From: a virus
Taxonomy: Duplodnaviria; Caudoviricetes
Virus record (IMG/VR): IMGVR_UViG_3300029288_000056
Location: 1 to 64,000 of that record
Direction: 5' to 3' (one strand)
Length of the DNA stretch: 64,000 nt
A program made the position numbers and the translations under genes. Positions 32,376 to 56,599 of the stretch are shown piece by piece. The notes under the pieces were generated by a model. It saw only the letters and a program-made list of their open reading frames with translations, was not told the DNA's origin and did no database searches. The first letter of the stretch is position 1, and each line of letters starts with the position of its first letter.

Positions 32376-33085
32376 ATTATTCCAGCCTCATGTAATTTAG
32401 TTTGATATTTACACCAACTGCAAGTCGGTGTTTTAGGAGGTAGAGGTCCTTCTAAGACGTCTAGGACCTCGTCAATAAGATCAACAAAAGAGTTATCATC
32501 TCTGCCTAAATCAATCCATGTCGTCTTGCCCTTATAATCACTGTCTAAGTTGTTGTCCACTTCAAAAGTTGCTGGCTCGTACGCTAGTATACCCATAAGA
32601 GACACAGGCTCCAAATGAAGACTGCCCTCTTCCGGGTGTTCTAATGCGTAGGTATATGCGCTCAACTGCTTGTGGTACAGATCGGTATGCTCTGCGTCAG
32701 GGACGGAAGTCTTGAAGTCAATAACACCGTAAGATCCGTCCTCGATTGTTATAATGCTGTCAACCATTCCACTGATAACACACTGTCTTAAGTGAGTGCC
32801 TATTTGTATTGGCTGAGAAACGACTTTGTAGTCGTGATAACCTACAACACCTTGCGGTAAGAACGGTGAGATGTCCTTCAGGTCTTTCCCTGTAAAGAAT
32901 TCCTTCGTATTCTTGTCGATGTCGTTGAATATCGCCGGCATCTGCATCCCAGATGGCGGGATCTTCTTGACGTACTTCAGCCAAAAACATCTATGGCATG
33001 TTCCCCACAAGAACGTCAGATCTGAGGGGCTAATGCGCCAGATTTCGTCGGGTGCTGCATTAAGAAAATGTGTTAAGCTACCCAT
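32372..33085 (-). CDS. PD-(D/E)XK nuclease (RecB/Cas4-like) with class II leader
   Basis: ISPSDL..CHRC, GMVD, VIDFKTS, QLSAY and CSWCKY motifs. Confidence 0.85.
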   Translation of the reverse strand: MGSLTHFLNAAPDEIWRISPSDLTFLWGTCHRCFWLKYVKKIPPSGMQMPAIFNDIDKNTKEFFTGKDLKDISPFLPQGVVGYHDYKVVSQPIQIGTHLRQCVISGMVDSIITIEDGSYGVIDFKTSVPDAEHTDLYHKQLSAYTYALEHPEEGSLHLEPVSLMGILAYEPATFEVDNNLDSDYKGKTTWIDLGRDDNSFVDLIDEVLDVLEGPLPPKTPTCSWCKYQTKLHEAGII

Positions 33086-33435
33086 TACACCGGAGTTATT
33101 GTGATGTTAAACTGATATGGTATTTGTGCCACTAGGGTGGCTAACGCTGTAATATCTTTCATTCCTATTGGATTTTCGGCCTGTAACTGAATCTCAACTA
33201 TAGTTCTTTCTGCCTTATCAACAAACACGTCCAAGTGAAAGTCTTCATAATTATCCGCTGATGCACACTCAACTTCGTATATGAATCCATCAGGCAGTTC
33301 ATTATCAGGAAGCGCACTTATACTTGTTACAGGTATCTTACTTCCTATAAATTGCTCCACCTTTGGTTCTAGCTCAAGCGCGGAGCCTCTTTTAAAATTC
33401 TCAGCATTCAGTTTTTTACGTCCAAAGTACGTCAT
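33085..33435 (-). CDS. putative internal virion protein (leader MTYFGRKKLNA)
   Basis: leader variant plus acidic body. Confidence 0.6.
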   Translation of the reverse strand: MTYFGRKKLNAENFKRGSALELEPKVEQFIGSKIPVTSISALPDNELPDGFIYEVECASADNYEDFHLDVFVDKAERTIVEIQLQAENPIGMKDITALATLVAQIPYQFNITITPV

Positions 33436-33444
33436 TTTGTCTCC

Positions 33445-33870
33445 CTAAAGTTGATGTTTATTGTAAATTAATTCTGTCCAAAGACTACTGAGTTGCGTAA
33501 TCGTCCCTTCGTCTTCTTTACCCAAGTAGTTCTTAGTGATCAGCTCGTAATACTCCGGATACTCGGTCTTGATGTCCAAGACCCATTCCTTATTCTTGTA
33601 GTCTTCTGATGCGAGAGCGTCGTCGGCGATATTGAAATACATTGACGATGTCCCTATAATGTCGTCGGAAAGGCTTACTACTTCCGGAGGGTACTCACCG
33701 ATCTCCGTTTCAACCTTTTCCTGCACTTTTGCCGTCTGTCTTTCCATCGGCGGCAACTGATCTACTATTGGAATGAATTCTTGATCCGGTGTTTCATCTA
33801 TAAGTTCATTGATCAATTCTTTTTTTCCACACAAATTAATCTCTTGTACTAGTACAATCTGTCTTGACAC
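33445..33870 (-). CDS. hypothetical acidic protein
   Basis: AGGAG SD, GTG start. Confidence 0.6.
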   Translation of the reverse strand: MSRQIVLVQEINLCGKKELINELIDETPDQEFIPIVDQLPPMERQTAKVQEKVETEIGEYPPEVVSLSDDIIGTSSMYFNIADDALASEDYKNKEWVLDIKTEYPEYYELITKNYLGKEDEGTITQLSSLWTELIYNKHQL

Positions 33871-33878
33871 GTATTCTC

Positions 33879-34445
33879 CTATTTTAATGAAGATTTTTTA
33901 ACAACAAAATCAGCGCTAATGTCTTCTGTATTCGCCATTAGTTCGTCTCTGAACTGTTTCCAAAAAACTTCCTTGTGCATTGGAAGTGAAGCCTCACCAT
34001 TTTTTTCCGCTAAGTCTTCCATATCAACTAATTCATAGCCACACGCTTGAGTTAATTTTATATAATCTCTTCTTGGCATTCGTGTGTGATATGATGTTGT
34101 ATATACCCAATATTCGTAACCGTTCTTTATGGCGTCCGTTCGTAAAACATTATTAATACGATCAATTTGTTCGTTACTTATATATGCATTCTTGTTTGAT
34201 AAAAAGTCGGTTAACTTACTCACGATATCTCTCCTTGCTATTAAAGACGGGTTCTTGTAATCAGATATCTCTTTATCTGCTGCCTCTTGCGGTGGAGTCG
34301 CTTCATCAATATAGCGCTCTATCACGTTGAAGTACAGATCTCCGTATTTGTCCCTGATTTCGTCAAAGTACTGGCCTAAGCAGTGTTCAAATTCACTAGC
34401 ATAGTCCTCAAAAGCTGCAAAGTCGGCGTTTTTAAAGTATTTCAT
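33879..34445 (-). CDS. putative internal virion protein (MKYFKN leader)
   Basis: MKYFKNADFAA. Confidence 0.65.
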   Translation of the reverse strand: MKYFKNADFAAFEDYASEFEHCLGQYFDEIRDKYGDLYFNVIERYIDEATPPQEAADKEISDYKNPSLIARRDIVSKLTDFLSNKNAYISNEQIDRINNVLRTDAIKNGYEYWVYTTSYHTRMPRRDYIKLTQACGYELVDMEDLAEKNGEASLPMHKEVFWKQFRDELMANTEDISADFVVKKSSLK

Positions 34446-35547: not shown

Positions 35548-36234
35548 TTATGTTGCTCTGATTAAATTTACGAGTTGGTTAAAATCGTCTTCTAGTTTAT
35601 TATAGTAGTGAAACAGATCGTCCTGATCGCCGTATCGTTTATTTTCGTCTAAACCGGAGCTCATTATTATATCTTCACACAGTTTAATTGGTAGGTCCTT
35701 AATAAAATTTCCCAAATCCTCCAAAAACGCAGAATCAATAGCATTTGCACCCTTAAAGGGCATACCTGAAAATTTTTTTATTCCGACGTCTTGCAACCAA
35801 TCAAAGACATCGGTGAATGCTGCTTGAGCCTCGGTTTTAAACCTTGAATAAGCAGATGAGCTCATCAGCCCCACTATCGTGGCGTTCCAGTTATATATGT
35901 CGTACAGCTTATCTTTAATTATGTTTTCATACTTAGCGTCGTCCAGATAAGGCGCCGCCTTAAGTCTACGGGAAGCGAAAAGATCTCGCAACCCCAACTC
36001 TTTACATATTTGATCATAGTTATTCATCCAAGCCGCCAGTAGTGTGCTGCAGAGTCTTTCGTCATAACCAAATTCATCTTCAATGTACACGGCTGCACCA
36101 AACATATTAGTTACGCCACTTTTCCGCAAGTCTTCTAGAAAACGATATACTTCTTTAACGTCGTCTTCGCTTATACCCGGAATAGAATAAGGATCTGTCG
36201 CCGCCTGTAGTTTTGCAAATTTAAAATATTTCAT
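35548..36234 (-). CDS. putative internal virion protein (MKYFKF leader), two domains
   Basis: MKYFKFAKLQAA; LRKSGVTNMFGAA domain; linker LFASRRLKAA. Confidence 0.65.
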   Translation of the reverse strand: MKYFKFAKLQAATDPYSIPGISEDDVKEVYRFLEDLRKSGVTNMFGAAVYIEDEFGYDERLCSTLLAAWMNNYDQICKELGLRDLFASRRLKAAPYLDDAKYENIIKDKLYDIYNWNATIVGLMSSSAYSRFKTEAQAAFTDVFDWLQDVGIKKFSGMPFKGANAIDSAFLEDLGNFIKDLPIKLCEDIIMSSGLDENKRYGDQDDLFHYYNKLEDDFNQLVNLIRAT

Positions 36235-36770: not shown

Positions 36771-36967
36771 ATCTTATCTTTGAGATCCTCAGGAAGTTCT
36801 TCTAGTTTTCTAAGAGTAACTCCACTGTCGTTTGTCCAAGATTTTTTGCCGCACGTCATACAGCCGGCTGCTCTTATTTTATCTTTTGCGTCGTAGAGGT
36901 AACCCCACTCAATTTTGTCGCTGCCGCAATAAGGGCAATGTCCTAGTTTGTTTTCACGTTCTTTCAT
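36767..36967 (-). CDS. small Zn-ribbon protein
   Basis: CPYCGS...CMTCG. Confidence 0.65.
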   Translation of the reverse strand: MKERENKLGHCPYCGSDKIEWGYLYDAKDKIRAAGCMTCGKKSWTNDSGVTLRKLEELPEDLKDKI

Positions 36968-37657: not shown

Positions 37658-38110
37658 CTAGTAAATAATAGGCGCAAGAAAGACTTTATAGGTGGTGCCG
37701 TTGTCTTCAGTACCGTCAACCTTGTAGCCCAAGAAATGATTCGCAGCCTGATCTATAATGTTTACCGCACCAGAATCGAATGCGCCTCTAACGGCCACGC
37801 GCACTTTACCACCATATAGTCCGTCCTTAGTACCAATATCGATGATGTCTATTCCCTTACCACGTAGATCTTCTTCTAGCTCATAAAGCTTATCCTCTTC
37901 AAGGCTCGCATCTAACTCACCTTTGTCTGCTAGTATTGGCGGATAAGGAGCGCTATTCATAAACTCGTCTAACGCATCATAGATTTCAAGCAATATAGAT
38001 TCAGGATTTCCGTTAACCGCGACACGCTTCTTGATGAAGTTTAACACCTCGGCCGCACTATTTAAAGACGCGTCCACATTCTCATTTAGGAAGTTAGTTA
38101 GATTACTCAT
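37658..38110 (-). CDS. putative internal virion protein (class II leader)
   Basis: MSNLTNFLNE; internal ELDAS. Confidence 0.6.
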   Translation of the reverse strand: MSNLTNFLNENVDASLNSAAEVLNFIKKRVAVNGNPESILLEIYDALDEFMNSAPYPPILADKGELDASLEEDKLYELEEDLRGKGIDIIDIGTKDGLYGGKVRVAVRGAFDSGAVNIIDQAANHFLGYKVDGTEDNGTTYKVFLAPIIY

Positions 38111-38472
38111 TATTGTCCATCCGCAAGTAAAATTTCTGGGCTATTAATATATTCCCCTAGTACACTTCTAAGACCTTCTTCGCTCACAAGCCTTTTAAAG
38201 GTCGCGTGTTTAACTGCTTCTATGAGTGCAAATTGATCGTCTCTATCAAGAACAGTTTTATCTGAGAAAACCAAGATCTCATCGATATATTCAGGAAGGT
38301 ACTCAATGACGTCACCGATCAATCCGTTGATAAAGTCGTTAACGATCTTTTCCCCTGCCATAGTAGAACCTTCAATGTCACTAGGGTCTTCTTCGGTGGT
38401 GTACTTCTTATACAACCCTTCTAGCACGCCTTCGGCGGCATCAAAGCGACCTGCGTTCTTAAAATATTTCAT
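38110..38472 (-). CDS. putative internal virion protein (MKYFKN leader)
   Basis: MKYFKNAGRFDAA. Confidence 0.65.
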   Translation of the reverse strand: MKYFKNAGRFDAAEGVLEGLYKKYTTEEDPSDIEGSTMAGEKIVNDFINGLIGDVIEYLPEYIDEILVFSDKTVLDRDDQFALIEAVKHATFKRLVSEEGLRSVLGEYINSPEILLADGQ

Positions 38473-39016: not shown

Positions 39017-39765
39017 TAAAACCTCAATCCTATTCCGATTTTAAACTCGAAATCAGCAGGCTTGTTTTGTGTAGCAGGTGTAAACTCTATCCCAGCGCCC
39101 GATTGTAGCCAACTGAACAACTCCTTACCTATGATTCCGGTATGGTTGTTATTTGTGCCGTAATAGTACTCTGCAAACCACTTGGCAACATAAGGCTTTG
39201 GCTTCTCTGGAATCTTAACCGCTTCTTCAACTGAGATGATAAGGTCTGGTATATATGGTTGACCATTCTCGTCGTACACCTTTTGATAGTTTCCGTCTTT
39301 ATCCGCAATAGCTACTTTAGGATCGGCAGAAGCGATTAAAAGCTTCCCGTCTTTGCCAAACGACCAAAAGATCTTTGCGGACTCGCTAGCCTTAAACCAG
39401 AATTCACCAGTACCGTCAGGATGAAGAATTAAAGTAACACCACCCCTGCGTTCACTGTTGAAGTACTTGTCGTCTCCCACTATAACCGGAGGCTTAGGGG
39501 GTTCGTGAACCTCAATGTACTTAATCTTTGTAACGATAACTTCTTTGACAGAGTCTTTTGCCAATTGAAGTTCCTTTTCTAATTCGGCAATTCGTTTAGC
39601 GTTTTGTTCTAATGTGATCTGATATCCCACTATAACACCGTTATCGTACGGTTCTTGGTGCATCGGCGGGAACAAAACATCATGAAGCCAAAAGACACTC
39701 AACGCCGCAATACCAAGAATGAGAACTCCTGTGTAAATCAAAACACCCTTAAGTGATACTTTCAT
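39016..39765 (-). CDS. membrane-anchored coiled-coil protein (spanin-like candidate)
   Basis: N-terminal TM helix, coiled coil, amphipathic C-terminal strands ending FEFKIGIGLRF. Confidence 0.5.
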   Translation of the reverse strand: MKVSLKGVLIYTGVLILGIAALSVFWLHDVLFPPMHQEPYDNGVIVGYQITLEQNAKRIAELEKELQLAKDSVKEVIVTKIKYIEVHEPPKPPVIVGDDKYFNSERRGGVTLILHPDGTGEFWFKASESAKIFWSFGKDGKLLIASADPKVAIADKDGNYQKVYDENGQPYIPDLIISVEEAVKIPEKPKPYVAKWFAEYYYGTNNNHTGIIGKELFSWLQSGAGIEFTPATQNKPADFEFKIGIGLRF

Positions 39766-40202
39766 CTAATATCCCCTTCTCCTCTTGCATTTAAATCGTC
39801 AATGTATTCTTGCAATTTACCAATAAGCGCCGCCAATATTGAGGCTTCAAACCTTTTATATTTAGTATCTTCACCAGAAGCTTGTTGTAATTCATGGATT
39901 AATGGGTTTAACTTTGATATTAGTGCTCTTAAGGCGAGGGATTTTTGTGGATTAGTTAAATCCTTATTACTAACATCCATCAATCTTGTTATATAGTCAT
40001 CTACACTAATTGCTGCGTTTAAATTTAAATTCTTAAAATATTTCATTTTACTTGCTTTAATATCACTACCCGCCTCTTGCTCGCACTCATCCATTATTTT
40101 AAGAAACATCATTGCCCATTCCCTGATTTGTGCCGCCTTGGCCCCGGTATATGATTTAGCTAATGTTTCTGTTTTACTTTTCAATAAATCCCATTTGTTC
40201 AT
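39762..40202 (-). CDS. putative internal protein with class III leader and internal MKYFKN
   Basis: MNKWDLLKS...IKASKMKYFKNLNLNAA. Confidence 0.65.
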   Translation of the reverse strand: MNKWDLLKSKTETLAKSYTGAKAAQIREWAMMFLKIMDECEQEAGSDIKASKMKYFKNLNLNAAISVDDYITRLMDVSNKDLTNPQKSLALRALISKLNPLIHELQQASGEDTKYKRFEASILAALIGKLQEYIDDLNARGEGDIR

Positions 40203-40865: not shown

Positions 40866-41081
40866 TTAACGTTTACTCGTCTCGTTAAGACGTTCTACAT
40901 CTTGTTGTAAGAGACTAATTAAGTCATTAATCTCTTTTACGAGATCAGGTATCTGATCTTTCAAATCAGACCCCATAACCGTATTTATTAATTTGCTTGG
41001 GTGAAATTCTTCGAAAGCGTTACTCAGCACGTTTAGCAAATAGCCACTCTGCGACGCGTTTAAGTTCTTAAAGTATTTCAT
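40866..41081 (-). CDS. putative internal virion protein (MKYFKN leader)
   Basis: MKYFKNLNAS. Confidence 0.65.
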   Translation of the reverse strand: MKYFKNLNASQSGYLLNVLSNAFEEFHPSKLINTVMGSDLKDQIPDLVKEINDLISLLQQDVERLNETSKR

Positions 41082-41851
41082 AAATCGCTCTCTTTCATAT
41101 TTTCTATTGCCGTAAAAGCCTCAACGGCCCATACATCAAGTTGTTGCCGCGTTATGCCGTACACGCTACAAAAAGCGTTAATGACACTAGCAATATCTGA
41201 TTCGGCGTCAACGGTACTCATATCATTCTCAACAAATTTATCAACCGCGATAAGCTCTGACTTTCTAGAATCAAATAGCTCGGATAAAAAATTATCAATT
41301 TCGTTCGAATCTGGGAACACACCATATATAGATTCATACAGATTATCAAATTTTAAATCGGATGCCGGGGCGCCGTTTTCTAACCATTCTTCCTTGTTCC
41401 ACGGTTTTAGCCCGGAATCTCTAAGCCCCTCTTTTAACATCTCATACATTCGTATAGCAACGTCGGATGAGAATGCTTGTGATGCGTTTAGGGAATGTCT
41501 CGAAGCCTTTAAGTCCGTCTGACTGTCCAACAGGCTTACTGCCGCGTCAAAAGCGTCCATAATTCCTTTAGCGTCTGAACCCGCACCCTTAGTCTCGGCT
41601 ACCAGATCATTGGTCTTAAGGTCGTATACTTCCATCTTGATTCCCATTTTTGTGAAAAGAACCGTAACAGAGAACATTCTGTCGTTGTAGGTTAAACCGA
41701 AACTGAATTCGGGAGGATTGTTCGCGGTTAAACGTCCGTCCTCTATGTCCAGACCCTCATACGGAAGGCCGAGTATGTCCAGATACTCCTTGAACATCTT
41801 AACTGCGTTTTCTTTTTCTGCTTCTAGGGGTATATTTTTAAAGTATTTCAT
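41078..41851 (-). CDS. putative internal polyprotein (MKYFKN leader)
   Basis: MKYFKNIPLEAE; linker LKASRHSLNAS. Confidence 0.65.
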   Translation of the reverse strand: MKYFKNIPLEAEKENAVKMFKEYLDILGLPYEGLDIEDGRLTANNPPEFSFGLTYNDRMFSVTVLFTKMGIKMEVYDLKTNDLVAETKGAGSDAKGIMDAFDAAVSLLDSQTDLKASRHSLNASQAFSSDVAIRMYEMLKEGLRDSGLKPWNKEEWLENGAPASDLKFDNLYESIYGVFPDSNEIDNFLSELFDSRKSELIAVDKFVENDMSTVDAESDIASVINAFCSVYGITRQQLDVWAVEAFTAIENMKESDL

Positions 41852-42726: not shown

Positions 42727-43003
42727 TTCCCACCTCATCCCAAAATATTTGAGCTTGATTAGAAATCTCAGCACAAAGTCTGTCAGATGTTATTTCGTCG
42801 GTCGAGTCGTAGAGATTAAGGTAGTCTGTGATCAACCCGTCGATGTTCTTTTTCCCACCGTACTTCGCTTCGGCAATCTCTTGAAGTAGCACGTGTGGCT
42901 TGTCAACTACGGTACCGATGAATGATAGCATCAGTTCAAACTCCTCTTCGGAGAATTCTTGCTTCCACAGGTCTAGTATGTCTTGGGCTATGGTTTTAAT
43001 CAT
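42704..43003 (-). CDS. hypothetical acidic protein
   Basis: coupled within the array. Confidence 0.55.
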   Translation of the reverse strand: MIKTIAQDILDLWKQEFSEEEFELMLSFIGTVVDKPHVLLQEIAEAKYGGKKNIDGLITDYLNLYDSTDEITSDRLCAEISNQAQIFWDEVGNGRPSSK

Positions 43004-43404
43004 TAATGTCCTTGTTGTGCGTGATACGCTTTTAGCGCGTCCTTCGCTTTTTCTTTAGAGTCATATACTGCTGGCCAAAGCTTACCAGTCTTGTGGGATT
43101 TAACTCTCCAATCCTCGCCTCGTTTAACGACCATGTGTTTCTTAGCGTCTAGGTCTCGGCGAGAAGCATTGGTGTTTTGCTTTTCATGCCTTAGGGCTAA
43201 CTCACTATGAATAATGGGTTCTAGCCTATCCATTTCATATTTACAATCATCGAATGCTCTGGCAAACGATTCTAGATCACCGTCCTCTAAAATATTAGGA
43301 GCTTGAATGTGAGAAAGAATATCTGTTAGCTTAATTAGCAAACTAAAGGTTTCATTAGTAATAGATGATGCATTCAATCTGGTATGATTACCAAAGTATC
43401 TCAT
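43003..43404 (-). CDS. putative internal polyprotein (MRYFGN leader)
   Basis: MRYFGNHTRLNAS; linker NASRRDLDA. Confidence 0.65.
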   Translation of the reverse strand: MRYFGNHTRLNASSITNETFSLLIKLTDILSHIQAPNILEDGDLESFARAFDDCKYEMDRLEPIIHSELALRHEKQNTNASRRDLDAKKHMVVKRGEDWRVKSHKTGKLWPAVYDSKEKAKDALKAYHAQQGH

Positions 43405-43413: not shown

Positions 43414-43701
43414 CTATATGCTGCTGTGGTACTCATCCGCCCCCACCTTTGTATTTGGAAGCCCAATATTAGGGACTTCTAATGCAAGATTTATTAAAGC
43501 CTCAATCCATCTTGCTGCTTCTGGGTTTGTGTCCTTGAAGTGGCTATAAAGTGTGTCAAGCTTTCCGTTCTCAGAAAGTCCTTGAACTCCCCAAATAATA
43601 GCCCTGAGCTGTTTCTCTGGAGTGTCATCTATACCTTCTCTATCAGTGAGATAATCCTCCATTGGATCTCCGGCGTTTAAAAATTGTGTTAATTTTCCCA
43701 T
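43414..43701 (-). CDS. putative internal virion protein (class II leader)
   Basis: MGKLTQFLNAG. Confidence 0.6.
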   Translation of the reverse strand: MGKLTQFLNAGDPMEDYLTDREGIDDTPEKQLRAIIWGVQGLSENGKLDTLYSHFKDTNPEAARWIEALINLALEVPNIGLPNTKVGADEYHSSI

Positions 43702-45330: not shown

Positions 45331-45543
45331 TTAGAAGTGGGATGTTATCTTGAATAGTGGTTTATTAGATCCTGCCGGTCCCGCCCCTAACGTTCCTCTC
45401 CCTAACTCAAACAGTTTTTGGAGTTCAAAAATTAGGCCACTAAGATCGGTGATGCGAATATCACCAGAGATTTTTTTAAGGATCTCTTTTATTTGAATGT
45501 CGGTGTCTGGCTGTTCAAAGTACGCATTCTTTAAATACTTCAT
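45331..45543 (-). CDS. putative internal virion protein (MKYLKN leader)
   Basis: leader variant. Confidence 0.6.
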   Translation of the reverse strand: MKYLKNAYFEQPDTDIQIKEILKKISGDIRITDLSGLIFELQKLFELGRGTLGAGPAGSNKPLFKITSHF

Positions 45544-45869
45544 ACGTGAAATCCCTTCTCTGGTGAAAATTTATGTAGATTAAATGGTATAGGAACGATC
45601 TCTGAATCCTCCAACACCCATCCGCTCAGCGACTCGCCTTTTGAGACTAGGTAGTTGTCACTCACTTGCTCGTAAGGAACTGCCATCATCTTATCTACTG
45701 TGTACCAATCGGCATCCAAAATCTGTTCAACAGCGTCATAGAATTCTTGCTCCTCTTTGTCGAATTTAACACTCCCAATAGAGTCTAGGTATTGTTGCGC
45801 AAGGTCTACATCGTCGAGAGATGGAAGAAGGACTAAGTCTGAAATGTTCATTAAAAGTCTGAAGTCCAA
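45540..45869 (-). CDS. hypothetical acidic protein
   Basis: C-terminus LHKFSPEKGF resembles LKRFSVEDGF of 48150..48911. Confidence 0.55.
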   Translation of the reverse strand: MDFRLLMNISDLVLLPSLDDVDLAQQYLDSIGSVKFDKEEQEFYDAVEQILDADWYTVDKMMAVPYEQVSDNYLVSKGESLSGWVLEDSEIVPIPFNLHKFSPEKGFHV

Positions 45870-46105
45870 CTATCACTAATACTTATATCTTTAATCGTTA
45901 CGCCGGGAGTAAACGACTCCGATTTCACCGATTGGATAAGTCTCCTAAGTTGTTCTAATATCTTATTTATGTCCGCCACGCTTACGCGATTTTTCTCTCT
46001 TTTATAAGACGTATCATATTCTATGTCAATATATAGATCACAGAACACCGTTCCGTTTACTACATTTTCTTTCTCCGCTTCTAGTTTTTTACCAAAGTAT
46101 TTCAT
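45851..46105 (-). CDS. putative internal virion protein (MKYFGK leader)
   Basis: MKYFGKKLEAEKEN. Confidence 0.65.
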   Translation of the reverse strand: MKYFGKKLEAEKENVVNGTVFCDLYIDIEYDTSYKREKNRVSVADINKILEQLRRLIQSVKSESFTPGVTIKDISISDSWTSDF

Positions 46106-46112: not shown

Positions 46113-47684
46113 CTAATCTACGTTGAAGTATTTCATACAAGTAGCGAGAAGTTCGTCATAATCTCCCGCCGTGGCTTCATTCATAAATTCGTCTATCTGC
46201 TCTTTAGACCAGCCCGCTTTGCGCGCTGCTCTCTGCGCAAGACCCAGTACGTTAAAAGCGTTGCCGTCTTGGTCTACTAAGGTTAGAGGTGGTTTATCGG
46301 TCGGAATCGCTGCATCTAATTTTTCACGCGAAGCTGCAATCTGGTCTGGTTCTAATACGATTGTCCATCCATCATACCCTTCGCCATGAACAATATTAAT
46401 ACAGTGATATCCAAACCCCAATAAAACACTGTCAACCCTGTTAACTGGATTAAGTATTGTTGGGTCAAGAGCTTCAGTTCCTTCTGGTTCATAAGGGTCT
46501 AAAACATCAATTAGTAAACCTCCGGACTCGTCTTCCCTTACTTGGCCCACATGCCAGCCATCCCGATTTAAGACGTCGGTAATTCGTTGTTTGATATCTC
46601 CTGCAGCCTCGAGCTTCTGTTTGGATGCACTTAAACTCTCATCTGGTCCTATAAGGATCTTCCACCCGCGCGCATCCGGTTCAATGTCTATAACCCCTTG
46701 ACCGAATGGGCCGAGTTTTTCGTCTAACCCTGATTCTAAACCAACGATCTCGTCGTCGTCGGCATAGTCGAAACCGCTCTTGCCGCCTTCGTTGATTATC
46801 ATTCCGAACTTACCAGAGTTGGGGAAAATTTGTTCCCACACTACCCTGTATCCAAGACCCTCAACGTAATCTTTTGCTACGTTTTCTGGATGGTCTAAAA
46901 GAGCGGCTTGGAGTTTACCGCGAGATGCGTTTTTAAAATATTTCATGGTTTCCCCTTTATTTGCTGTTAATTTATGTACTATTGATATTGTAAAGTCGCT
47001 GAAGATCCCTTCATCATCGGTGGTAACTACGTTTTCTACGTAGTAGCCTTTACCCATAATGTTTAGGGCTTTCTGAACCTCTTGTTTTACCCGGTCTGCG
47101 TGCCAAGCCGTATGGCAGCGCACGTTAAATAGACTGCCTTGAGTCGTCTCTGTGACGCTGTCCACGTTTATGCCGTTGAGCGCGAGTGCATTTGATATCT
47201 CGGTCGTCACTCCACCTTCTCCGATGAGAAAGTTAAAAAGCTTATTAGTTAGACTTGCTTTCAATGACTCTCCTTCCAGTGAGATCTTGTCAATCTCTTG
47301 CTGAAGCTCTCCTAAAATCTTTGTCAGAGAAACATTAAGCTTATCGTTCAGTTCTTTTCTGCCGTCAAAATCGAAAGAATCGTCGTCGTAGAATAGGTCG
47401 TTTGGTTTGATGTAGTCTATACTGCCTATAACCCGACACATCATTGTATCAAAGGTGTTGTTTTCGTTCTCCGGCCGATAGAAACAGACGTCTACGTCAA
47501 CCCATGCACTTTCGTCTTCGTAAGTTATGGGAAAACGAGAGGAGATACCGTAGTCAAATTCGCCCTCTATGGCAAAAAAGTCCGGCGAAACTCCATCAGA
47601 AATGATGCCACAATGCTTTAGGAATTCTCGCGTAAGGGCTAGGTACTGATCTCTCTCAACATCAACTACTTTACTTTCGGCCAT
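46113..47684 (-). CDS. five-domain putative internal polyprotein
   Basis: linkers LKAS, MKYFKNASRGKLQAA, LSASKQKLEAA and IAASREKLDAA; last domain contains DGNAF...ATAGDY. Confidence 0.7.
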   Translation of the reverse strand: MAESKVVDVERDQYLALTREFLKHCGIISDGVSPDFFAIEGEFDYGISSRFPITYEDESAWVDVDVCFYRPENENNTFDTMMCRVIGSIDYIKPNDLFYDDDSFDFDGRKELNDKLNVSLTKILGELQQEIDKISLEGESLKASLTNKLFNFLIGEGGVTTEISNALALNGINVDSVTETTQGSLFNVRCHTAWHADRVKQEVQKALNIMGKGYYVENVVTTDDEGIFSDFTISIVHKLTANKGETMKYFKNASRGKLQAALLDHPENVAKDYVEGLGYRVVWEQIFPNSGKFGMIINEGGKSGFDYADDDEIVGLESGLDEKLGPFGQGVIDIEPDARGWKILIGPDESLSASKQKLEAAGDIKQRITDVLNRDGWHVGQVREDESGGLLIDVLDPYEPEGTEALDPTILNPVNRVDSVLLGFGYHCINIVHGEGYDGWTIVLEPDQIAASREKLDAAIPTDKPPLTLVDQDGNAFNVLGLAQRAARKAGWSKEQIDEFMNEATAGDYDELLATCMKYFNVD

Positions 47685-48149: not shown

Positions 48150-48911
48150 TTATGCGTGATAAAAACCATCTTCTACGGAAAATCTCTTAAGAGGTTGGTC
48201 AATTTTATATATCTCACCATTATCTGAAAACTTCTGTAGTTCTTCGGGTTCAAAATGCTCATATATGTCTGCCCAATCTGAATTTAACAAACCTATATTA
48301 TCAGTGTAAGGTGTGAACAATTCCCCTGAATTTCCGAATTCATACCAATCTTGCTGCATAATTGCTTCAATATCTTTTTTAACTTCTTCGGTGGTAAAAT
48401 TAGAGCCTACAAAATCCGGTATCCAAACCAACTTACCTGTATCAACAGGGTCTCCATTTTGATCTACATATTTACCGATTTCGGCTTCTAACTTATTCTT
48501 TGATGCGTTTCCCATCGGGTAATTCTCTATTTCATCTTCTGGGGAATTTTCCACGATCTGTCTGATTTGTTCGTCGCTAAAGAAACCGTCTATAACGCCA
48601 TCGGTTACATCGTCGAACATTTTTAAAAACTGTTCCTCAAATTCGGGTGCGTTGTAAAACCGAATAACGTATTCCGGAAACGTTTCTTCACCGACCGGAC
48701 CGTTGACCGTGATTTGTCCGTTAGAGATGTTGGTAATCTCCGAGTAGTCGCTAGGGCTGGCTGGACTTGACACCATATTCCCAACCTCGTACTGGCTAGG
48801 CTCGGTTTGCCAATCTATTGCAGCCTGAAGCTTAGACGCACTAATGTTTGTGCCGTTAATCAGATTAGAAACGATTTCCTTAACCTTATCGGCATTTTTT
48901 ATGTATTGCAT
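48150..48911 (-). CDS. putative internal polyprotein (MQYIKN leader)
   Basis: MQYIKNADKV; ISASKLQAA; NASKNKLEAE. Confidence 0.65.
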   Translation of the reverse strand: MQYIKNADKVKEIVSNLINGTNISASKLQAAIDWQTEPSQYEVGNMVSSPASPSDYSEITNISNGQITVNGPVGEETFPEYVIRFYNAPEFEEQFLKMFDDVTDGVIDGFFSDEQIRQIVENSPEDEIENYPMGNASKNKLEAEIGKYVDQNGDPVDTGKLVWIPDFVGSNFTTEEVKKDIEAIMQQDWYEFGNSGELFTPYTDNIGLLNSDWADIYEHFEPEELQKFSDNGEIYKIDQPLKRFSVEDGFYHA

Positions 48912-50864: not shown

Positions 50865-51056
50865 CTATACTAAGTTCATTTTAGCGTCTTCTAATAGAAC
50901 GATGACGTCTTCGATCAAATCAACGATTCGTTCGTCTATGTCGTTACTTTCGATTATACCTTTTAAAAGGGTAATGGAGTCACTAACCTCATTATATGTC
51001 TGTGATTCTATACTTGGCGGTGGGCCATCAAACCCTGCGTTTTTAAAGTATTTCAT
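50865..51056 (-). CDS. putative internal virion protein (MKYFKN leader)
   Basis: MKYFKNAGFDG. Confidence 0.6.
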   Translation of the reverse strand: MKYFKNAGFDGPPPSIESQTYNEVSDSITLLKGIIESNDIDERIVDLIEDVIVLLEDAKMNLV

Positions 51057-51057: not shown

Positions 51058-52908
51058 TTAACCTCTCACTGTGTTGTAGTAAATTTCTGCTGCTTGGTAG
51101 TTGTCACCGAAGCTGGTAACCTTTTCATAGTCTTCTTTCAACCAACGTAAAATCTCTTCTGGACTCAAATCGCCGTGCGCTGTCATACTAAAACCATTCG
51201 CATTACCCATCAATCTAGTTTCTTGCCACTTGTTTGAAAAGTCGGCGGGGCCGTTTCTCTCCATCTTTCCTAAACAGACGTCCGGTCCATCCTCAATCAC
51301 GACATAAAAGACGGCGGGTCCGTCTAGCTCCGCCTCTAGTTTGGCGATCTTCTTGAACGAGTCGGTGAGTGATGCTGAGACAGACTCCATTGGTGTACTG
51401 AGATTGATCATAACGTCAGTGTCGTCGGTGAAGTGAATATATAATTGATCCCCACGGTTAGCCGCATAATCAAATTTCTGTAATATATTCTTCTCAACGA
51501 CGTCTAAGCCGACGAGAAATCCGTTATAGGATATAATCTTTGTTGGATTTGTTTTGTGTAGTGCTCTAATATAATCAAGCACACTTTCTTTTGTATCTAA
51601 CTTTCCCTTAATGTGACGGGCGGCGCTAATATTATGTTCTTCGATTAAGTTCAGTAAATCCACGGCAAATGTATATAGTGCTTCGTTAAATTCACCCTCT
51701 CCGAGGAATTCTGTGATTTTACTTGATTCTTGTTCATTTAAAATGATGAAACCCAAACCCAATCTAACCAAAACCTTGTTAGCAAAAGAAGCTAAACGCT
51801 TTGGGTCTCTTGCTCCTCCATCATAAAGTCTCTTAAATTCGTCGCTGAGAATATATGAGTTTTGAACTGAATCAAAAATTTTATCTATCCTTAATTTGTG
51901 AGTGCTATCATCCGCCGCCACACTAGCACCCAACACCCCATTTATCTTAGCGATAAAATGCCCGAACTGCTCTGCGAAGCTGGGGTTATGATAGTCAAAG
52001 GTGCTATTGAACTCAACCTTCGTAGCACACCTTACCGAAACTGCTCCACTAGGATCGTTTATGCCTACTGAGAACTCCGTCCCATCTTTTGTAACCGCCT
52101 TATAGAGGTTTACGAATGTTGTCATTCCGTTATAGTCTGTGCCAAGGTCGTCTACACCGGCACAGTACTTTTGTAGAATGGTAAAGACTGTGTCGTTAGT
52201 CTTTTTATCCGCCTGTAGAGACGCCGCAAAGTTCTGTCGTCTAAATCCCTTTATCTCAGTATCGGCCGATTCAAACGCGGTTAGGCCCGTATCGTGCCAT
52301 TCCTTAATCATTGTGTCAAACATCGCGTCGTAGTGATTCTTGATAACGCGCAAGTAGTTCTGCTCTTGGATCCTTTTGATGAACTGAGCCTTGAAGGTCT
52401 CGAAGTCCCCGACTGGCCCATCCGGTAGCTGATCTTCCGACTCACTTGCTCCTCGATCGCTTAGAATGTCGCCAAAGTAGTAGGGGTCTTCATCTGCAAA
52501 GGCTTGAAGCTTTTTGCAAGCAGCGAACAAATTAAGTCTGGAAGCACTAGCTCGTGGCGTTAGTTCTTCTTTTAACCTGCGAGCAAAATGAGAAATAGTC
52601 GTTGCTTGAAGTGATATACTGGGCGTATTAGGTGTATCCGCCGTTAGATGACAATTTACAAATGTTTCCCATCCATCATAAGCGCTTTTTTCATTACCCG
52701 ATCTGGAACTGCCCAAGAACAGGCTGATAATATATGACTTGCCATTAATTTCCACAAGACGTGACAATCCATTAGCGTTTCTGTGCTCAATATATTTACC
52801 ACCTAATTCCTCAACCACCTTCTTGGCCGCATCATAATACTGTTGCTCAAGTTGTAGTTCTTCTTTTGATTTATAAGCGTTCAGATTTATATTTTTAAAA
52901 TATTTCAT
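51058..52908 (-). CDS. multi-domain putative internal polyprotein (MKYFKN leader)
   Basis: start reassigned to 52908 (AGGAG SD); linkers KKLQA, FAASLQA, LGASVAA, ISAA and KLEAE. Confidence 0.7.
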   Translation of the reverse strand: MKYFKNINLNAYKSKEELQLEQQYYDAAKKVVEELGGKYIEHRNANGLSRLVEINGKSYIISLFLGSSRSGNEKSAYDGWETFVNCHLTADTPNTPSISLQATTISHFARRLKEELTPRASASRLNLFAACKKLQAFADEDPYYFGDILSDRGASESEDQLPDGPVGDFETFKAQFIKRIQEQNYLRVIKNHYDAMFDTMIKEWHDTGLTAFESADTEIKGFRRQNFAASLQADKKTNDTVFTILQKYCAGVDDLGTDYNGMTTFVNLYKAVTKDGTEFSVGINDPSGAVSVRCATKVEFNSTFDYHNPSFAEQFGHFIAKINGVLGASVAADDSTHKLRIDKIFDSVQNSYILSDEFKRLYDGGARDPKRLASFANKVLVRLGLGFIILNEQESSKITEFLGEGEFNEALYTFAVDLLNLIEEHNISAARHIKGKLDTKESVLDYIRALHKTNPTKIISYNGFLVGLDVVEKNILQKFDYAANRGDQLYIHFTDDTDVMINLSTPMESVSASLTDSFKKIAKLEAELDGPAVFYVVIEDGPDVCLGKMERNGPADFSNKWQETRLMGNANGFSMTAHGDLSPEEILRWLKEDYEKVTSFGDNYQAAEIYYNTVRG

Positions 52909-52915: not shown

Positions 52916-53371
52916 CTAAAACATGTCCGTAACATTTAATGGTTTAAAGTCGTTATTGATCGTGTTGTTCAGTTCCTCGTTTAAAACCTTTTCCGTCAGC
53001 ATAACAAGGTTGTCGGTGTCGATGTTGTCAGGAATGATAATCGGCGATGTCTGTTGGAAGTCTGTAACCGCAGTTGGCCCGACGGTTGACTGCGCGATGA
53101 GATTGTTTTCAAAACTCGTCTTCAGCGCGGTAAGAAGGTCGTCTACCAGTTCGCTGTTGTCTTGATTCGCGTCATAAAGCGGCTGAATGGCGAGATCAAG
53201 ATCGCCCTTATTGTCGGCGTCGAGAATGTGTTTAGCAGCATCGATGGAACCGTAAAGGCCGTTTTCTACATCATCCATTAATTCTAAAGAATCTTCCCAC
53301 CTCAGAACGTAGTCATACTGTTCTCTATTTCTTCTCTGCAGTTCGCTCTTTAAGACGTCCCATTTATTCAT
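52916..53371 (-). CDS. putative internal protein (class III leader)
   Basis: MNKWDVLKS at 53371 (GAGGA SD); linker IDAAKHILDA. Confidence 0.6.
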   Translation of the reverse strand: MNKWDVLKSELQRRNREQYDYVLRWEDSLELMDDVENGLYGSIDAAKHILDADNKGDLDLAIQPLYDANQDNSELVDDLLTALKTSFENNLIAQSTVGPTAVTDFQQTSPIIIPDNIDTDNLVMLTEKVLNEELNNTINNDFKPLNVTDMF

Positions 53372-53372
53372 G

Positions 53373-53555
53373 TTATTCCTCTGCACCCTGTTGAAAATTA
53401 CTGAATTTATCGAGAATAAACGCTAATTGAACCGCCGCGTTTTTAGGGCCTATGTCCTCATTTTGTAATAAATCCCATAATTTCTCTAACTCATCATATA
53501 CCTCGTCAAACAATCCCCAATCAGTCTTGTTTGCTTCTAGTTTAAAGTATCTCAT
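53373..53555 (-). CDS. putative internal virion protein (MRYFKLEA leader)
   Basis: minimal 8-aa leader. Confidence 0.6.
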   Translation of the reverse strand: MRYFKLEANKTDWGLFDEVYDELEKLWDLLQNEDIGPKNAAVQLAFILDKFSNFQQGAEE

Positions 53556-53577
53556 TATATCCCCAATCCACTAAGGT

Positions 53578-53793
53578 CTATACCTTTGTAAGAGTGTCGA
53601 TTAATTCTTTACAATACTTAATAGCAACGTTCCAATCATTAACAGCGTTGGTATACATTGCGTCGCCCGATTCGCCATAATAACTATCTTCGTCTGGCTC
53701 ACTAAAATTAAGTACCTCTAAAATCAAGTTCAGTTTTTCAATATAACTTTGCGCCTTTATTGGGTCAAGGTTGGCGTTCTTAAAATATTTCAT
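53578..53793 (-). CDS. putative internal virion protein (MKYFKN leader)
   Basis: MKYFKNANLDPIKA. Confidence 0.65.
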   Translation of the reverse strand: MKYFKNANLDPIKAQSYIEKLNLILEVLNFSEPDEDSYYGESGDAMYTNAVNDWNVAIKYCKELIDTLTKV

Positions 53794-53802
53794 GTGATCT
53801 CC

Positions 53803-54183
53803 TTATGTTATTACTGTATCTTTAGGTATCCCAGTGAATGGCAAAGCCATATACTCCCTAACTTTGTCAATAGAATCTATTTTTGTATGTCCATAATCAA
53901 TTAAATCAGGTCTTAAGTCGTGGCCGTCACCTGTTATATCACCAGTAGGACTTACATAACAATAGCCGCCAAAAAGAATTTTAAGGGGTAGAATAACAAA
54001 ATGAGTTTCACTATTATATACCACTTCTGCTAATCTTTCCCGATGACTACTTGATTCACCTTTCCAGTCAGAAGAAACCCACCTTACGAACGTGGCGGTT
54101 CCTTGGTGTAACAGGTTTATTTGCTGGCCCTTTTTAATATCACCAACATAAGTGCCAATGGATGCGAATTTGAAATATTTCAT
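53803..54183 (-). CDS. putative internal virion protein (MKYFKF leader)
   Basis: start reassigned to 54183 (AGGGG SD); MKYFKFAS. Confidence 0.6.
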   Translation of the reverse strand: MKYFKFASIGTYVGDIKKGQQINLLHQGTATFVRWVSSDWKGESSSHRERLAEVVYNSETHFVILPLKILFGGYCYVSPTGDITGDGHDLRPDLIDYGHTKIDSIDKVREYMALPFTGIPKDTVIT

Positions 54184-54190
54184 ATTTCCC

Positions 54191-54577
54191 CTAATCGTGT
54201 CCGTATCTAGAAAGCCCGAAACAATCTTCACTGCTGTTACCATAAGGCGGCTTAGCAATATAACTGTCGGGCGGATTCGTATAAAATTCTGTTGTTACTT
54301 TTCTTACTACTTCCCAAACTCGCTCTGGGTCGATGTTGCTCGCCTTCAATTCGGAACGTCTGGTTAAAAGAGTGTCACCTTCATAGCGAATGTGCGGGAC
54401 AAAGATGGTCTCTACAAGTCCAAGCGGTTCTAAGGCTTTGTAAAGTCTTTCCCACAACGTATAGGCACCCAACTTCGTCAGTCCTTTAGGCATCAAGTTC
54501 GAGCCGAGTGCTAAGTAACTTATGGTAGCGTTACCGAATTCTGAGTTTAAGAATTGGCCGAGTTTATTCATCTTCAC
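54191..54577 (-). CDS. putative internal protein (class II leader)
   Basis: MNKLGQFLNS. Confidence 0.55.
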   Translation of the reverse strand: MKMNKLGQFLNSEFGNATISYLALGSNLMPKGLTKLGAYTLWERLYKALEPLGLVETIFVPHIRYEGDTLLTRRSELKASNIDPERVWEVVRKVTTEFYTNPPDSYIAKPPYGNSSEDCFGLSRYGHD

Positions 54578-55190
54578 CGAAGTGTTCTCTAACCAAGTCT
54601 TCTTCCCAATTTTGTTTAGGGTCGTTAACAGAGATCTGAACTTTCCATTCTAGGCTGCCCCAATATCTGAACTTTACTAAGCCCCACATGCTTCCCATGA
54701 AACAGTGAATCAGTTCCGCCTGCATTTTGTCAGAGGTTAGAATGTCTTTCACGCGTACGAAGAATTCGAGATTAGAGTCGTCCATTTCTTTAAGATCGGA
54801 GGCTAGTTCAAACCCACCTTTTGATAGTAACTGATTTATCTTTTGACCGCTCATACTTGTGCTTGTCATATCGCGTAAAAATTCTGCACTAAGTATTTCC
54901 TTATGTGGCCTAAAATAAAGCAGCCATCTATCTAGATTCCAAACCGGTGTAGTATAAGGGCTGATATCAACAACGTCGATCCCATCCTCTATGAGTTGAG
55001 ATTTTATATCTTCTACGATTACTCCCTCCGGGGCAGGGCCTTTGAAACCGAATTCACAGATAACCTCGTCCCCTGCGTTTCGCATACCGATAACTTCACC
55101 GCCGAAATCACGTATGATGAAGTCAACCTTAGTCTCATCTCCAACTCCCGCGGTAAATTTACCGTTTAAAAAATCGTTGAGTTTTCCCAT
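54564..55190 (-). CDS. putative internal protein (class II leader), two related domains
   Basis: MGKLNDFLNGKFTA; internal ILSA. Confidence 0.6.
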   Translation of the reverse strand: MGKLNDFLNGKFTAGVGDETKVDFIIRDFGGEVIGMRNAGDEVICEFGFKGPAPEGVIVEDIKSQLIEDGIDVVDISPYTTPVWNLDRWLLYFRPHKEILSAEFLRDMTSTSMSGQKINQLLSKGGFELASDLKEMDDSNLEFFVRVKDILTSDKMQAELIHCFMGSMWGLVKFRYWGSLEWKVQISVNDPKQNWEEDLVREHFGEDE

Positions 55191-55444
55191 TACAATACCT
55201 CATAAAAAAGTGCGCTGTCTGGCGATGTATCACCAGTTGCTATATAGTGTTTCTTACCGAGTAACCCAGCCTTCCAATCGCCGGCTGGCAACAGTCTTTT
55301 CAGCCCATTGACGATCTCGGCGAGATATATTTCATATGAATTTCCGGCGGGTGAATAATTAATATCCTCGTAAACTACCTGTCCCTCGTTGTATACGACT
55401 AATACGAATTCATTATCGGCTGCTGCATTTTTAAAGTATTTCAT
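55190..55444 (-). CDS. putative internal virion protein (MKYFKN leader)
   Basis: MKYFKNAAA. Confidence 0.65.
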   Translation of the reverse strand: MKYFKNAAADNEFVLVVYNEGQVVYEDINYSPAGNSYEIYLAEIVNGLKRLLPAGDWKAGLLGKKHYIATGDTSPDSALFYEVL

Positions 55445-55970
55445 GGCTCTCCTTTAGCTTAGCTAAAATACGTTGCTCTCGTTCCTTGTGCTCCCACCAA
55501 ACCAATAGCGCAACTGCGTCGGTTACGTGATCGGAAAGGCTCCCAAAACTCAAAATCTCTGGGTGAAGATTAACTACTCGGTTTGCGGTCCGTTCTTTAT
55601 TCTCTGTAATCGGGCTCACACCGTTAACCTTTACAAGGTGTGGTGGTATACACAACATCTTAACCGATCTACCGATCAACAGCATTTGGATCTCCATGAT
55701 CAGTTCGTACAGTTTCTTGATACTGGAGTCCATCATGTGCGGCGAGTACATGTTTCCCCGCGAGTGAGCGTAGAAGCTCGGCAACTCTACAACGACGAGA
55801 TCGGGTCTGTGCTCGTCCAGTCTTTCGCCCAACCACTTAACTACCTGACGGATTTTGTCGCAATACTCTTTACCCTTTGGATCGAGCTGGTCTACGTGAG
55901 TTATGGTTCTGTCGTTCATAACTGCGAGACCGCAATGAGTACCGCCGGGGTCTAGTGCAAGGGTAATCAT
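55431..55970 (-). CDS. RuvC-like Holliday junction resolvase
   Basis: LALDPG...GLAV, VVVE and HVTDAVAL catalytic motifs. Confidence 0.85.
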   Translation of the reverse strand: MITLALDPGGTHCGLAVMNDRTITHVDQLDPKGKEYCDKIRQVVKWLGERLDEHRPDLVVVELPSFYAHSRGNMYSPHMMDSSIKKLYELIMEIQMLLIGRSVKMLCIPPHLVKVNGVSPITENKERTANRVVNLHPEILSFGSLSDHVTDAVALLVWWEHKEREQRILAKLKESHEIL

Positions 55971-56599
55971 TTATTTTTTGAATACCATTGATCAAAGGCT
56001 TGGGTTATATTCATTGCAAGTTCATCTGTGTTATAACCTAGCATTCCTAAAACCATATCTACAATATCCCACTTATCGTTTGTATCATCTATTCTTAGAC
56101 CGAAAAGATTTATTGCGTAATCGGGCTCTGAAAGAAGTTCTGGTTCACGATCTTTATCTTCTTTCCACTCATCTTCAAACTCACTTGTAATAGATATAAT
56201 AACACTAGGGTCCGCAGCCGCGTTTAATCTCCCACTGACCAACTGTCTTACCTTATCTGCGTCTTTAATGTATTTCATTTCCTTAGCGGCGCCCAATTTG
56301 CCGAGTTTTTCCTCAGCTACGAGTGCGAGCATTCCCGCTAACTTATCCCCAGCATCCTCGCGCCCTTCCTCAAATTCATTTTCATCATCTGGCTCATCAG
56401 TAAACCAATCGGAAGAGAAGTCATTTCCAAATTCCTCCCATACCCAGTCGGGAATATTTCCTTTTACTATTTTTCGTAACGCACTTTTAAATTGAGCGTC
56501 ACTAACTTCCCCGACACCTAACTCTTCCGCTAATGATTCTGTCAGTTTATTGTCTAAAAGCTCTTTAGCGTAATCATGAATATAATCTAAGTCTAGCAT
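55967..56599 (-). CDS. acidic two-domain protein with internal MKYIKD leader
   Basis: KLGAAKEMKYIKDADKVRQLVSGRLNAA. Confidence 0.6.
   Translation of the reverse strand: MLDLDYIHDYAKELLDNKLTESLAEELGVGEVSDAQFKSALRKIVKGNIPDWVWEEFGNDFSSDWFTDEPDDENEFEEGREDAGDKLAGMLALVAEEKLGKLGAAKEMKYIKDADKVRQLVSGRLNAAADPSVIISITSEFEDEWKEDKDREPELLSEPDYAINLFGLRIDDTNDKWDIVDMVLGMLGYNTDELAMNITQAFDQWYSKNK

Follow-up and report, generated by a model that had tools for sequence, protein, structure and literature searches.

The first 64 kb of IMG/VR virus record IMGVR_UViG_3300029288_000056 (297,328 bp, from an uncultured phage; these 64 kb are referred to below as the window) encode an array of otherwise unrelated proteins that share one short peptide, MKYFKN, which we call tag A. 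All 19 copies of tag A lie in a single co-directional array that ends 7 kb upstream of the terminase, portal, protease, scaffold and capsid genes. We consider that tag A is best explained as a capsid-targeting propeptide removed by a prohead protease, a reading to which we give slightly less than an even chance. The first-pass annotation of the window had proposed a head-assembly address like that of bacteriophage T4, and this proposal now gains indirect support from genome-specific tags in two relatives, from a motif in the scaffold-like proteins and from a protease candidate of the gp21/assemblin fold encoded next to the portal gene.

A peptide tag shared by unrelated proteins

We scanned the six-frame translation of the whole 297-kb genome with the loose pattern M-[KRTQ]-Y-[FLI]-[KG], which gave 19 matches against 1.6 expected (50 shuffles: mean 1.6, maximum 6). 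The exact hexapeptide MKYFKN was found 10 times, where 0.0017 copies are expected by chance: at eight starts of open reading frames (ORFs; 34445, 38472, 41081, 41851, 51056, 52908, 53793 and 55444) and at two internal positions (40046 and 46946). All 19 matches fall on the minus strand, from 33,435 to 56,278, in frame with tiling ORFs, and the scan found no copy outside 33.4-56.3 kb or on the plus strand. The 19 positions given by the first-pass annotation were thus all correct. Its range for the array, 33085-56599, holds every copy of tag A but proved too narrow, given a tag-like start at 26213 and a second tag (tag B, described below) that reaches about 111 kb.

Sixteen of the 19 copies are ORF starts, with an AGGAG/GGAG-like ribosome site ahead of them and unrelated DNA farther upstream. 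The other three are internal (40046, 46946 and 56278, the last reading MKYIKD); each retains its Met, which suggests gene fusions, and a ribosome site is present at 46946 only. Of the 45 minus-strand genes of 32.4-56.6 kb, at least 24 bear one of the two tags, and a few others have just the linker described below. The carriers of tag A, together with one tag-like gene near the terminase gene, are as follows.

33085..33435, minus strand: tag-A gene, 116 amino acids (aa), start MTYFGRKKLNA
33879..34445, minus strand: tag-A gene, 188 aa, start MKYFKNA; internal tag-B-like SKLTDFL at residue 77
35548..36234, minus strand: tag-A gene, 228 aa, start MKYFKFAKLQA; internal ASRRLKA at residue 87
38110..38472, minus strand: tag-A gene, 120 aa, MKYFKNAGRFDA
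39762..40202, minus strand: 146-aa ORF, start MNKWDLLKS; internal tag A MKYFKNLNLNA at residue 53 (40046), without ribosome site
40866..41081, minus strand: tag-A gene, 71 aa, start MKYFKNLNA
41078..41851, minus strand: tag-A gene, 257 aa, start MKYFKNIPLEA; internal ASRHSLNA at residue 116
43003..43404, minus strand: tag-A gene, 133 aa, MRYFGNHTRLNA; internal ASRRDLDA
45331..45543, minus strand: tag-A gene, 70 aa, start MKYLKNA
45851..46105, minus strand: tag-A gene, 84 aa, start MKYFGKKLEA
46113..47684, minus strand: 523-aa ORF of polyprotein-like build; C-terminus matches phrog_1933
48150..48911, minus strand: tag-A gene, 253 aa, long-form tag MQYIKNADKV...ISASKLQA
50865..51056, minus strand: tag-A gene, 63 aa, start MKYFKNA
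51058..52908, minus strand: tag-A gene, 616 aa, start MKYFKNINLNA; five L-x-A sites
53373..53555, minus strand: tag-A gene, 60 aa, start MRYFKLEA
53578..53793, minus strand: tag-A gene, 71 aa, MKYFKNANLDPIKA
53803..54183, minus strand: tag-A gene, 126 aa, start MKYFKFA
55190..55444, minus strand: tag-A gene, 84 aa, start MKYFKNAAA
55967..56599, minus strand: 210-aa ORF, tag-B-like NKLTESL at residue 17; internal long-form tag A at residue 108 (56278)
25890..26213, minus strand: 107-aa gene just upstream of the terminase gene, tag-like start MYIQK...SKLDA

The peptide, rather than the DNA, is under selection, since the Tyr (TAC 11, TAT 8) and Asn (AAC 6, AAT 7) codons of tag A vary as they do in the genome. 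These counts bear out what the first-pass annotation had concluded from synonymous variation, with the reservation that Lys-2 (AAA in 14 of 15), Phe-4 (TTT in 15 of 16) and the first Ala (GCA in 11 of 19) lean towards A/T, as is common at gene starts. The L-x-A motif in which the tag usually ends is likewise selected as peptide, because its Leu uses all six codons and its Ala all four. A DNA repeat or recombination site was considered and dropped, as the upstream DNA is unrelated and the codons vary.

The bodies behind the tag are unrelated and acidic, as had been noted before. Their lengths span 60-616 aa, BLASTP at E≤1e-3 detects no similarity among them, and their median isoelectric point is 4.65 versus 5.67 for the rest (Mann-Whitney p=4e-4). 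Searches with Pfam (10 bodies) and PHROGs returned nothing but phrog_1933, a family of unknown function, on one C-terminus, and two ESM Atlas look-ups gave low-confidence models and no usable neighbour. The suggestion that the cargo consists of anti-defence or host-takeover effectors found no support, the tag-A bodies being without recognisable function; in the wider array the only recognised domains are PD-(D/E)XK, NUDIX and ChaB, all tagged, and one untagged M23 peptidase.

Three further observations concern sequences that resemble tag A or tag B. ORF 41848-42774 has L-K-Y-F-G-M...L-N-N-A near its start (42730-42774), with CTC in place of ATG, and looks like a decayed copy. At the far end of the tail module, a 710-aa protein (2035-4167) starts with MSYFDRDRA, a loose likeness that may be due to chance. 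A third common start, MNKWD[LV]LKS, is present on ORFs 39762-40202 and 52916-53386 (Met at about 53371) and may be a variant of tag B.

Alanine sites, a second tag and the relatives

An Ala is found at position 7-12 in 19 of 19 copies of tag A, usually within L-x-A. Eleven copies read MKYFKN-A or a near variant, and the remainder reach the Ala via L-N-A, L-E-A or L-Q-A; the [LIF]-x-A ending described in the first-pass annotation fits most copies, the Ala being the stricter rule. The motif L-[NQEKD]-A or [FIL]-K-N-A occurs at 0.0207 per residue in the first 20 residues of the proteins of 32-57 kb versus 0.0014 in other proteins (15-fold), and it is also 3-fold denser in the interiors of the 32-57 kb proteins. 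In these interiors it forms part of a consensus linker, A-S-[KR]-x(0-4)-[LIV]-x-A, exemplified by ASRGKLQA, ASKLQA, ASKNKLEA and ASRHSLNA, of which 21 of 25 genomic occurrences fall within 32-111 kb. An N-glycosylation sequon (N-A-S) was dropped as a reading of the linker, because A-S is constant and the Asn is not. The ORF at 46113..47684 combines these elements: tag-B-like motifs at about residues 16 and 148, a copy of tag A inside the ORF at residue 247 (46946), which has a separate ribosome site, and three A-S-[KR]...L-x-A linkers at residues 253, 353 and 451.

Tag B, [SNG]-K-L-T-x-F-L-(L)-x-A, resembles the A-S-K...L-x-A linker in expanded form. It heads four genes in the tag-A array, listed below, and lies inside two tag-A proteins. 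It is the dominant tag in 63-111 kb, where it occupies N-terminal, inter-domain and C-terminal positions, and its carriers number about 45, compared with 19 for tag A.

32372..33085, minus strand: tag-B gene, start MGSLTHFLNA, PD-(D/E)XK nuclease domain
37658..38110, minus strand: tag-B gene, start MSNLTNFLNE
43414..43701, minus strand: tag-B gene, start MGKLTQFLNA
54564..55190, minus strand: tag-B gene, start MGKLNDFLNG

Elsewhere, a 78-aa ChaB-domain protein (63250-63486) carries a C-terminal tag B, SKLAEFLE, and a 56-aa protein of one relative (contig L009) is weakly similar to it (E 0.006). Genome positions 65-87 kb (L015 and L016) hold about 10 paralogues in which an N-terminal domain of about 170 residues, IFLRIDRD...QSYYD, is followed by tag B and a variable C-terminal domain. 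A single isolated tag-B-like start, MGKLNEFLNA, lies distant from the arrays, at about 243.6-244.0 kb.

The lineage is very isolated. Two relatives, 40% and 37% identical, emerged from an exhaustive HMMER search of 1.84 billion proteins in which the putative capsid protein was the query; their contigs (L008 to L014, at most 10.8 kb) span the genes from portal to capsid, in synteny with the window. No relatives turned up among 50,697 phage records when the array (megablast) or the capsid protein (tblastn) served as query, in locus searches of IMG/VR with the 616-aa cargo protein, the capsid protein, the capsid alignment or the protease alignment, or in a search of GTDB genomes with the capsid alignment. 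Tblastn of terminase and portal gave remote hits only, word-based searches for proteins like the portal, protease and terminase brought back nothing but the query, and a DNA pattern for MKYFKNA gave seven single chance hits in IMG/VR and no second array.

Both relatives have the same design with different peptides. In each, small genes interspersed with those for portal, protease, scaffold and capsid open with a shared, genome-specific peptide of 13-17 residues that ends in L-x-A: (A)YLDYLKIKTQLQA, seen twice, in L008, and in L009/L010 a family around SYIxRKIxLKLKA (variants KLALKLQA, KYKLDA and KLLA) on six genes. Which tag a protein bears thus goes with its genome rather than with its body, because two orthologues that are 66% identical (L008:3224-3604 and L010:4344-4730) each bear the tag of their own genome. 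Similarly, a 187-aa gene of L010, right after a large tagged ORF, encodes a protein 58% identical to the tag-B array protein or domain 99202-100137, and has ASKRLKA at the site where the latter has ASKLTEFLL. Two to four copies of the A-S-[KR]...L-x-A linker are present in each of the large ORFs beside the relatives' head genes, and the 8-mer ASRHSLNA is identical in the tag-A protein 41078-41851 and in a 757-aa protein of a relative.

Head genes and the candidate protease

The head genes that bear on the argument are listed here in their order along the minus strand.

24475..25890, minus strand: terminase large subunit (phrog_2, 1.5e-27)
21572..24472, minus strand: Mu-type portal (residues 76-426; PF06074, 4e-41) with a 520-residue C-terminal extension
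20110..20757, minus strand: candidate prohead protease, 215 aa, after the portal gene, between portal and scaffold
19677..20108, minus strand: 143-aa head-module gene, start MAERLEA, internal IKNA; the relatives have tagged small genes at the same place
19219..19680, minus strand: 153-aa acidic scaffold-like protein, paralogous to the N-terminal part of the 18184..19209 product
18184..19209, minus strand: 341-aa scaffold-like protein, FKYLHA near the N-terminus, SASRQQLAG near the C-terminus
16693..17742, minus strand: putative major capsid protein, assigned from position and size

Both relatives encode, at the equivalent position, a homologue of the 20110-20757 product, and His47, the stretch G-I-S-Y-S-I (Ser101 and Ser103), His135 and His146 are invariant in all three lineages. 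An AlphaFold model built from the three sequences (mean pLDDT, the predicted local distance difference test, 53; predicted template-modelling score 0.53) was compared with 48,161 PDB representatives by a structural aligner, which placed T4 gp21 first (Z 7.8, 117 residues aligned), followed by the proteases of varicella-zoster virus (VZV) and human cytomegalovirus (HCMV) at Z 7.3 and 5.5. With Foldseek, herpesvirus proteases took ranks 2-11 (probability 0.8-0.96, E from 5e-3), those of VZV, HCMV, Kaposi's sarcoma-associated herpesvirus, herpes simplex virus and pseudorabies virus being among the fold matches. An hhalign comparison of the protease alignment with T4 gp21 gave a non-significant match that pairs G-I-Ser101 with G-V-Ser140 of gp21. 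Since the two structural methods agree, and because of the gene position and the conserved His, Ser and His, 20110-20757 likely encodes a prohead protease of the gp21/assemblin fold. The assemblin-like fold matters because herpesvirus assemblin cuts after Ala, the residue in which the tags end. The Prp cysteine protease, which acts on L27-type N-terminal extensions and is used by Staphylococcus phage 80alpha, gave no match (PF04327, E≤1) in the phage genome, a search that leaves a host enzyme outside its scope.

The 341-aa and 153-aa acidic proteins share a domain with 380-aa and 551-aa proteins of the relatives, and we read them as scaffold proteins. At one aligned C-terminal site the scaffolds have SASRQQLAG (this phage), NASKKVIAE (L008) and AAKGKKNQLLAH (L010); of these, NASKKVIAE has the cargo linker proper, and the forms in this phage and L010 come near it. 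FKYLHA, near the N-terminus of the scaffold, is close to MKYLKNA. Hydrophobic-x-Ala sites that immediately follow the protease domain and that lie near residue 55 in the capsid protein are likewise conserved in three of three lineages. With three sequences, this conservation in scaffold, capsid and protease is no more than suggestive. The AlphaFold model of the putative capsid protein had a pLDDT of 32, a predicted complex of the capsid protein, scaffold residues 1-150 and a 71-aa tag-A protein scored 0.02, and a profile search of PDB sequences with the capsid and protease alignments found nothing relevant.

These genes belong to a genome that is 94% complete by the CheckV estimate, has a G+C content of 42.8% and carries about 90% of its approximately 530 ORFs on the minus strand. 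Along that strand, a transferase block (62.2-56.6 kb) is followed by the tagged array (56.6-32.4 kb), small genes with a tRNA-Met, the terminase large subunit, the Mu-type portal with its long extension, an HNH gene, five unknown genes, the putative capsid protein and the tail genes, among them one for a 1330-aa protein of tape-measure size. Scans for sigma-70 promoters and terminators stayed at shuffle level, so that no timing of expression can be read from them.

Several features of this region stand apart from the tags. Within residues 450-966 the portal has a linker of low complexity and a C-terminal domain of 400 residues that contains Cys/His motifs; a tag-B-like LHNFL is found at residue 566. 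MuF (PF04233, Phage_Mu_F) had no match at E≤1 in the phage genome, portal extension included. The untagged block that separates the two tagged arrays (56593-62153, minus strand) encodes two family-9 glycosyltransferases, two GT2+DUF5672 proteins and one methyltransferase, and a third paralogue of the family-9 enzymes lies at about 188 kb of the genome. Four HNH endonuclease genes are dispersed over the head module and the arrays (20932-21603, 30232-30807, 44125-44721 and 62850-63260), the first of which separates the portal gene from that of the protease candidate. The M23 peptidase within the tagged array (Peptidase_M23 domain, 36967-37632) is of the cell-wall hydrolase type.

Proposed capsid loading and the alternatives

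In the explanation that we favour, MKYFKN would be the N-terminal half of a two-part propeptide, an address that docks a newly made protein to the assembling prohead. The docking partner would be part of the scaffold core or the inner shell, and the amphipathic tag B would dock likewise. The Ala one to six residues past the hexapeptide, mostly in L-x-A or [FIL]-K-N-A, would be the site at which the 20110-20757 protease cuts inside the prohead. Cutting at the flanking Ala sites would free the cargo and strip the address, the same Ala cuts would separate fused ORFs, and C-terminal tags preceded by A-S would act like the tail of the herpesvirus scaffold, first binding the shell and then being cut off. 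Because linkers and tag B stand between domains and at C-termini, the cargo may be loaded as single proteins or small polyproteins that are released in the head. The released proteins would then be present in the virion and would be ejected into the host.

Applied to both tags, this mechanism would amount to a modular loading code, with MKYFKN or S-K-L-T-x-F-L-L dockers at the start, middle or end of a protein, herpesvirus-like Ala release sites and a protease of the gp21/assemblin fold, through which about 60 proteins from about 80 kb (27% of the genome) would be packed, cut free and delivered with the DNA. We put this wider scheme forward tentatively, as possible rather than probable.

A number of points weigh against capsid loading. 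Packaging and cleavage are argued from sequence patterns, synteny and fold only, and packing about 60 mostly acidic proteins along with the DNA would be unusual. Three tag-A copies (45543, 51056 and 54183) have no [LIFA]-x-A soon past the first Ala; the residue after the Ala varies (A, E, S, G, N or Y), unlike the strict Ser of herpesviruses; and L-x-A is a short and frequent tripeptide. The protease candidate matched no protease family by sequence (Peptidase_S78 and Mu-like_Pro were among those tried in the genome), its model is weak, and its fold scores are below the safe level (Z<8, Foldseek E about 5e-3). The capsid protein is putative, assigned by position, and any arrays of the relatives are not visible because their contigs are at most 10.8 kb.

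The closest precedent is the T4 capsid targeting sequence (CTS), which is carried by the internal proteins IPI-III and by Alt and is removed by the prohead protease gp21 (PMC9026906, PMC3012670). Its 10 residues hold an address (positions 4 and 7) and processing residues (8 and 10), and gp21 cuts after L/I-x-E (PMC9026906). Tag A is likewise an N-terminal peptide of about 10 residues on unrelated proteins, with a proposed address half followed by a short, predicted hydrophobic-x-small/acidic cut site, and the head genes include one for a candidate protease that probably has the same type of fold; the C-terminal copies of tag B suggest trimming at that end too, as in Alt. Unlike the CTS, tag A has another sequence and a predicted cut after Ala rather than Glu, it and tag B have 19 and about 45 carriers instead of a handful, the arrays lie next to the head module with tags also inside ORFs, and the system is known here from genes alone.

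Herpesvirus assemblin, which has a Ser-His-His triad, cuts after Ala (PMC4498786), the standard HCMV substrate being V-V-N-A/S, with the stroke marking the cut (PMC3853728). The predicted fold and the conserved order His...Ser...His of the candidate agree with assemblin, and L-x-A, x-N-A-S and A-S fit a cut directly behind an Ala that has a hydrophobic residue two or three positions ahead of it; a shell-binding peptide that is subsequently cut off, as proposed here, would parallel herpesvirus scaffold release. In contrast to assemblin, the candidate has no sequence similarity to it, the residue after the Ala is not a fixed Ser, and there would be dozens of cargo substrates instead of a scaffold-protease pair.

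In the giant phages phiKZ, 201phi2-1 and SPN3US, ejection and inner-body proteins have N-terminal propeptides that a gp21-like protease removes at a three-residue motif; the SPN3US head contains more than 50 gene products, and some processed proteins have several sites (PMC10052503, PMC5694885, PMC9026906). The present phage resembles this group in its jumbo genome and in the many different head-internal proteins predicted for it. However, the propeptides of that group share only the cut motif x-x-Glu and no common opening peptide, and its members are myoviruses with virion RNA polymerases, unrelated by sequence to this lineage. Polyvalent proteins and MuF- or portal-linked effectors carry effector-like domains beside portal and terminase genes, are thought to be head-borne and are in some cases processed (PMC5512222); for DarB of P1, the first 30 residues are enough to load a reporter (PMC9024508). 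Unlike these, most of the cargo here consists of separate, short-tagged genes and not of one giant fusion, and MuF is undetected. For comparison, other N-terminal tags in other huge phages include MNWYK... and MNRYDIALGKKPPP (unchecked).

Among the alternatives, the one that survives best is that the tags dock proteins to a common partner other than the head. This hub might be a chaperone, some membrane or secretion apparatus, an enzyme that modifies the proteins, or a host protease to which the tag is an N-terminal degradation signal. Short common terminal peptides do serve many hubs, and the glycosyl- and methyltransferase block lies between both arrays. Yet no radical-SAM, transporter or secretion genes were seen in the array, the linker does not qualify as a glycosylation sequon, the scaffold proteins contain a close form of the motif, and the tagged genes of the relatives are in the head module. 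We consider this explanation unlikely.

Alternatively, the tags may be a processing code and nothing else, with cut sites at which a phage or host protease matures polyproteins or removes an inhibitory N-terminus in the cytoplasm. The internal A-S-[KR]...L-x-A linkers and the polyprotein-like fused ORFs would fit, as would the Ala at position 7-12 being the most constant feature of the tag. This would, however, leave the invariant M-K-Y-F-K-N ahead of the cut site unexplained; moreover, proteases of the gp21/assemblin fold work inside proheads (PMC9026906), and tagged genes sit among the head genes in the relatives, which makes processing alone decidedly unlikely.

It is improbable that the 19 genes are diverged paralogues, that is, copies of one gene that kept their N-terminus while the bodies drifted apart and that have no address function. 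The genes are indeed clustered and small, and those with tags at 48911 and 56278 are alike for about 20 residues past the hexapeptide; but the 10-fold spread in length and the lack of any BLASTP-similar pair argue against common descent, as do the presence of the same tags on different known domains in the wider array (PD-(D/E)XK, NUDIX and ChaB) and the different tags on orthologues in the relatives. An RNA-level element, in which A/U-rich AUG AAA UAY UUU AAR AAY would either keep the translation start free of structure or be the operator to which a translational repressor binds, would account for the A/T bias at Lys-2, Phe-4 and Ala and for all six residues belonging to the A/T-rich codon class, but is scarcely credible given the fixed order of residues with freely varying third positions, the two internal copies without a ribosome site, the use of all Leu and Ala codons in the linked L-x-A, and the fact that tag B and the relatives' tags are not A/T-rich.

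The principle behind the proposed capsid loading by tag A is already known from the T4 CTS. What is new is the tag itself, the number of its carriers, the modular placing of tags at either end of a protein or within it, and the predicted Ala-specific cut, which would be herpesvirus-like and not like that of known phages; we found no description of such large tagged arrays in the literature. If the explanation is true, this phage would devote more than a quarter of its genome to proteins that accompany the DNA, far above the three T4 internal proteins that define the principle, and 6-11 added residues would provide a ready-made route for sending proteins into a capsid. A phage protease that cuts after Ala would also join phage and herpesvirus capsid maturation in substrate code besides fold. 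The tags would furthermore allow candidate virion cargo to be listed from sequence in uncultured huge phages, in which most such genes are of unknown function.

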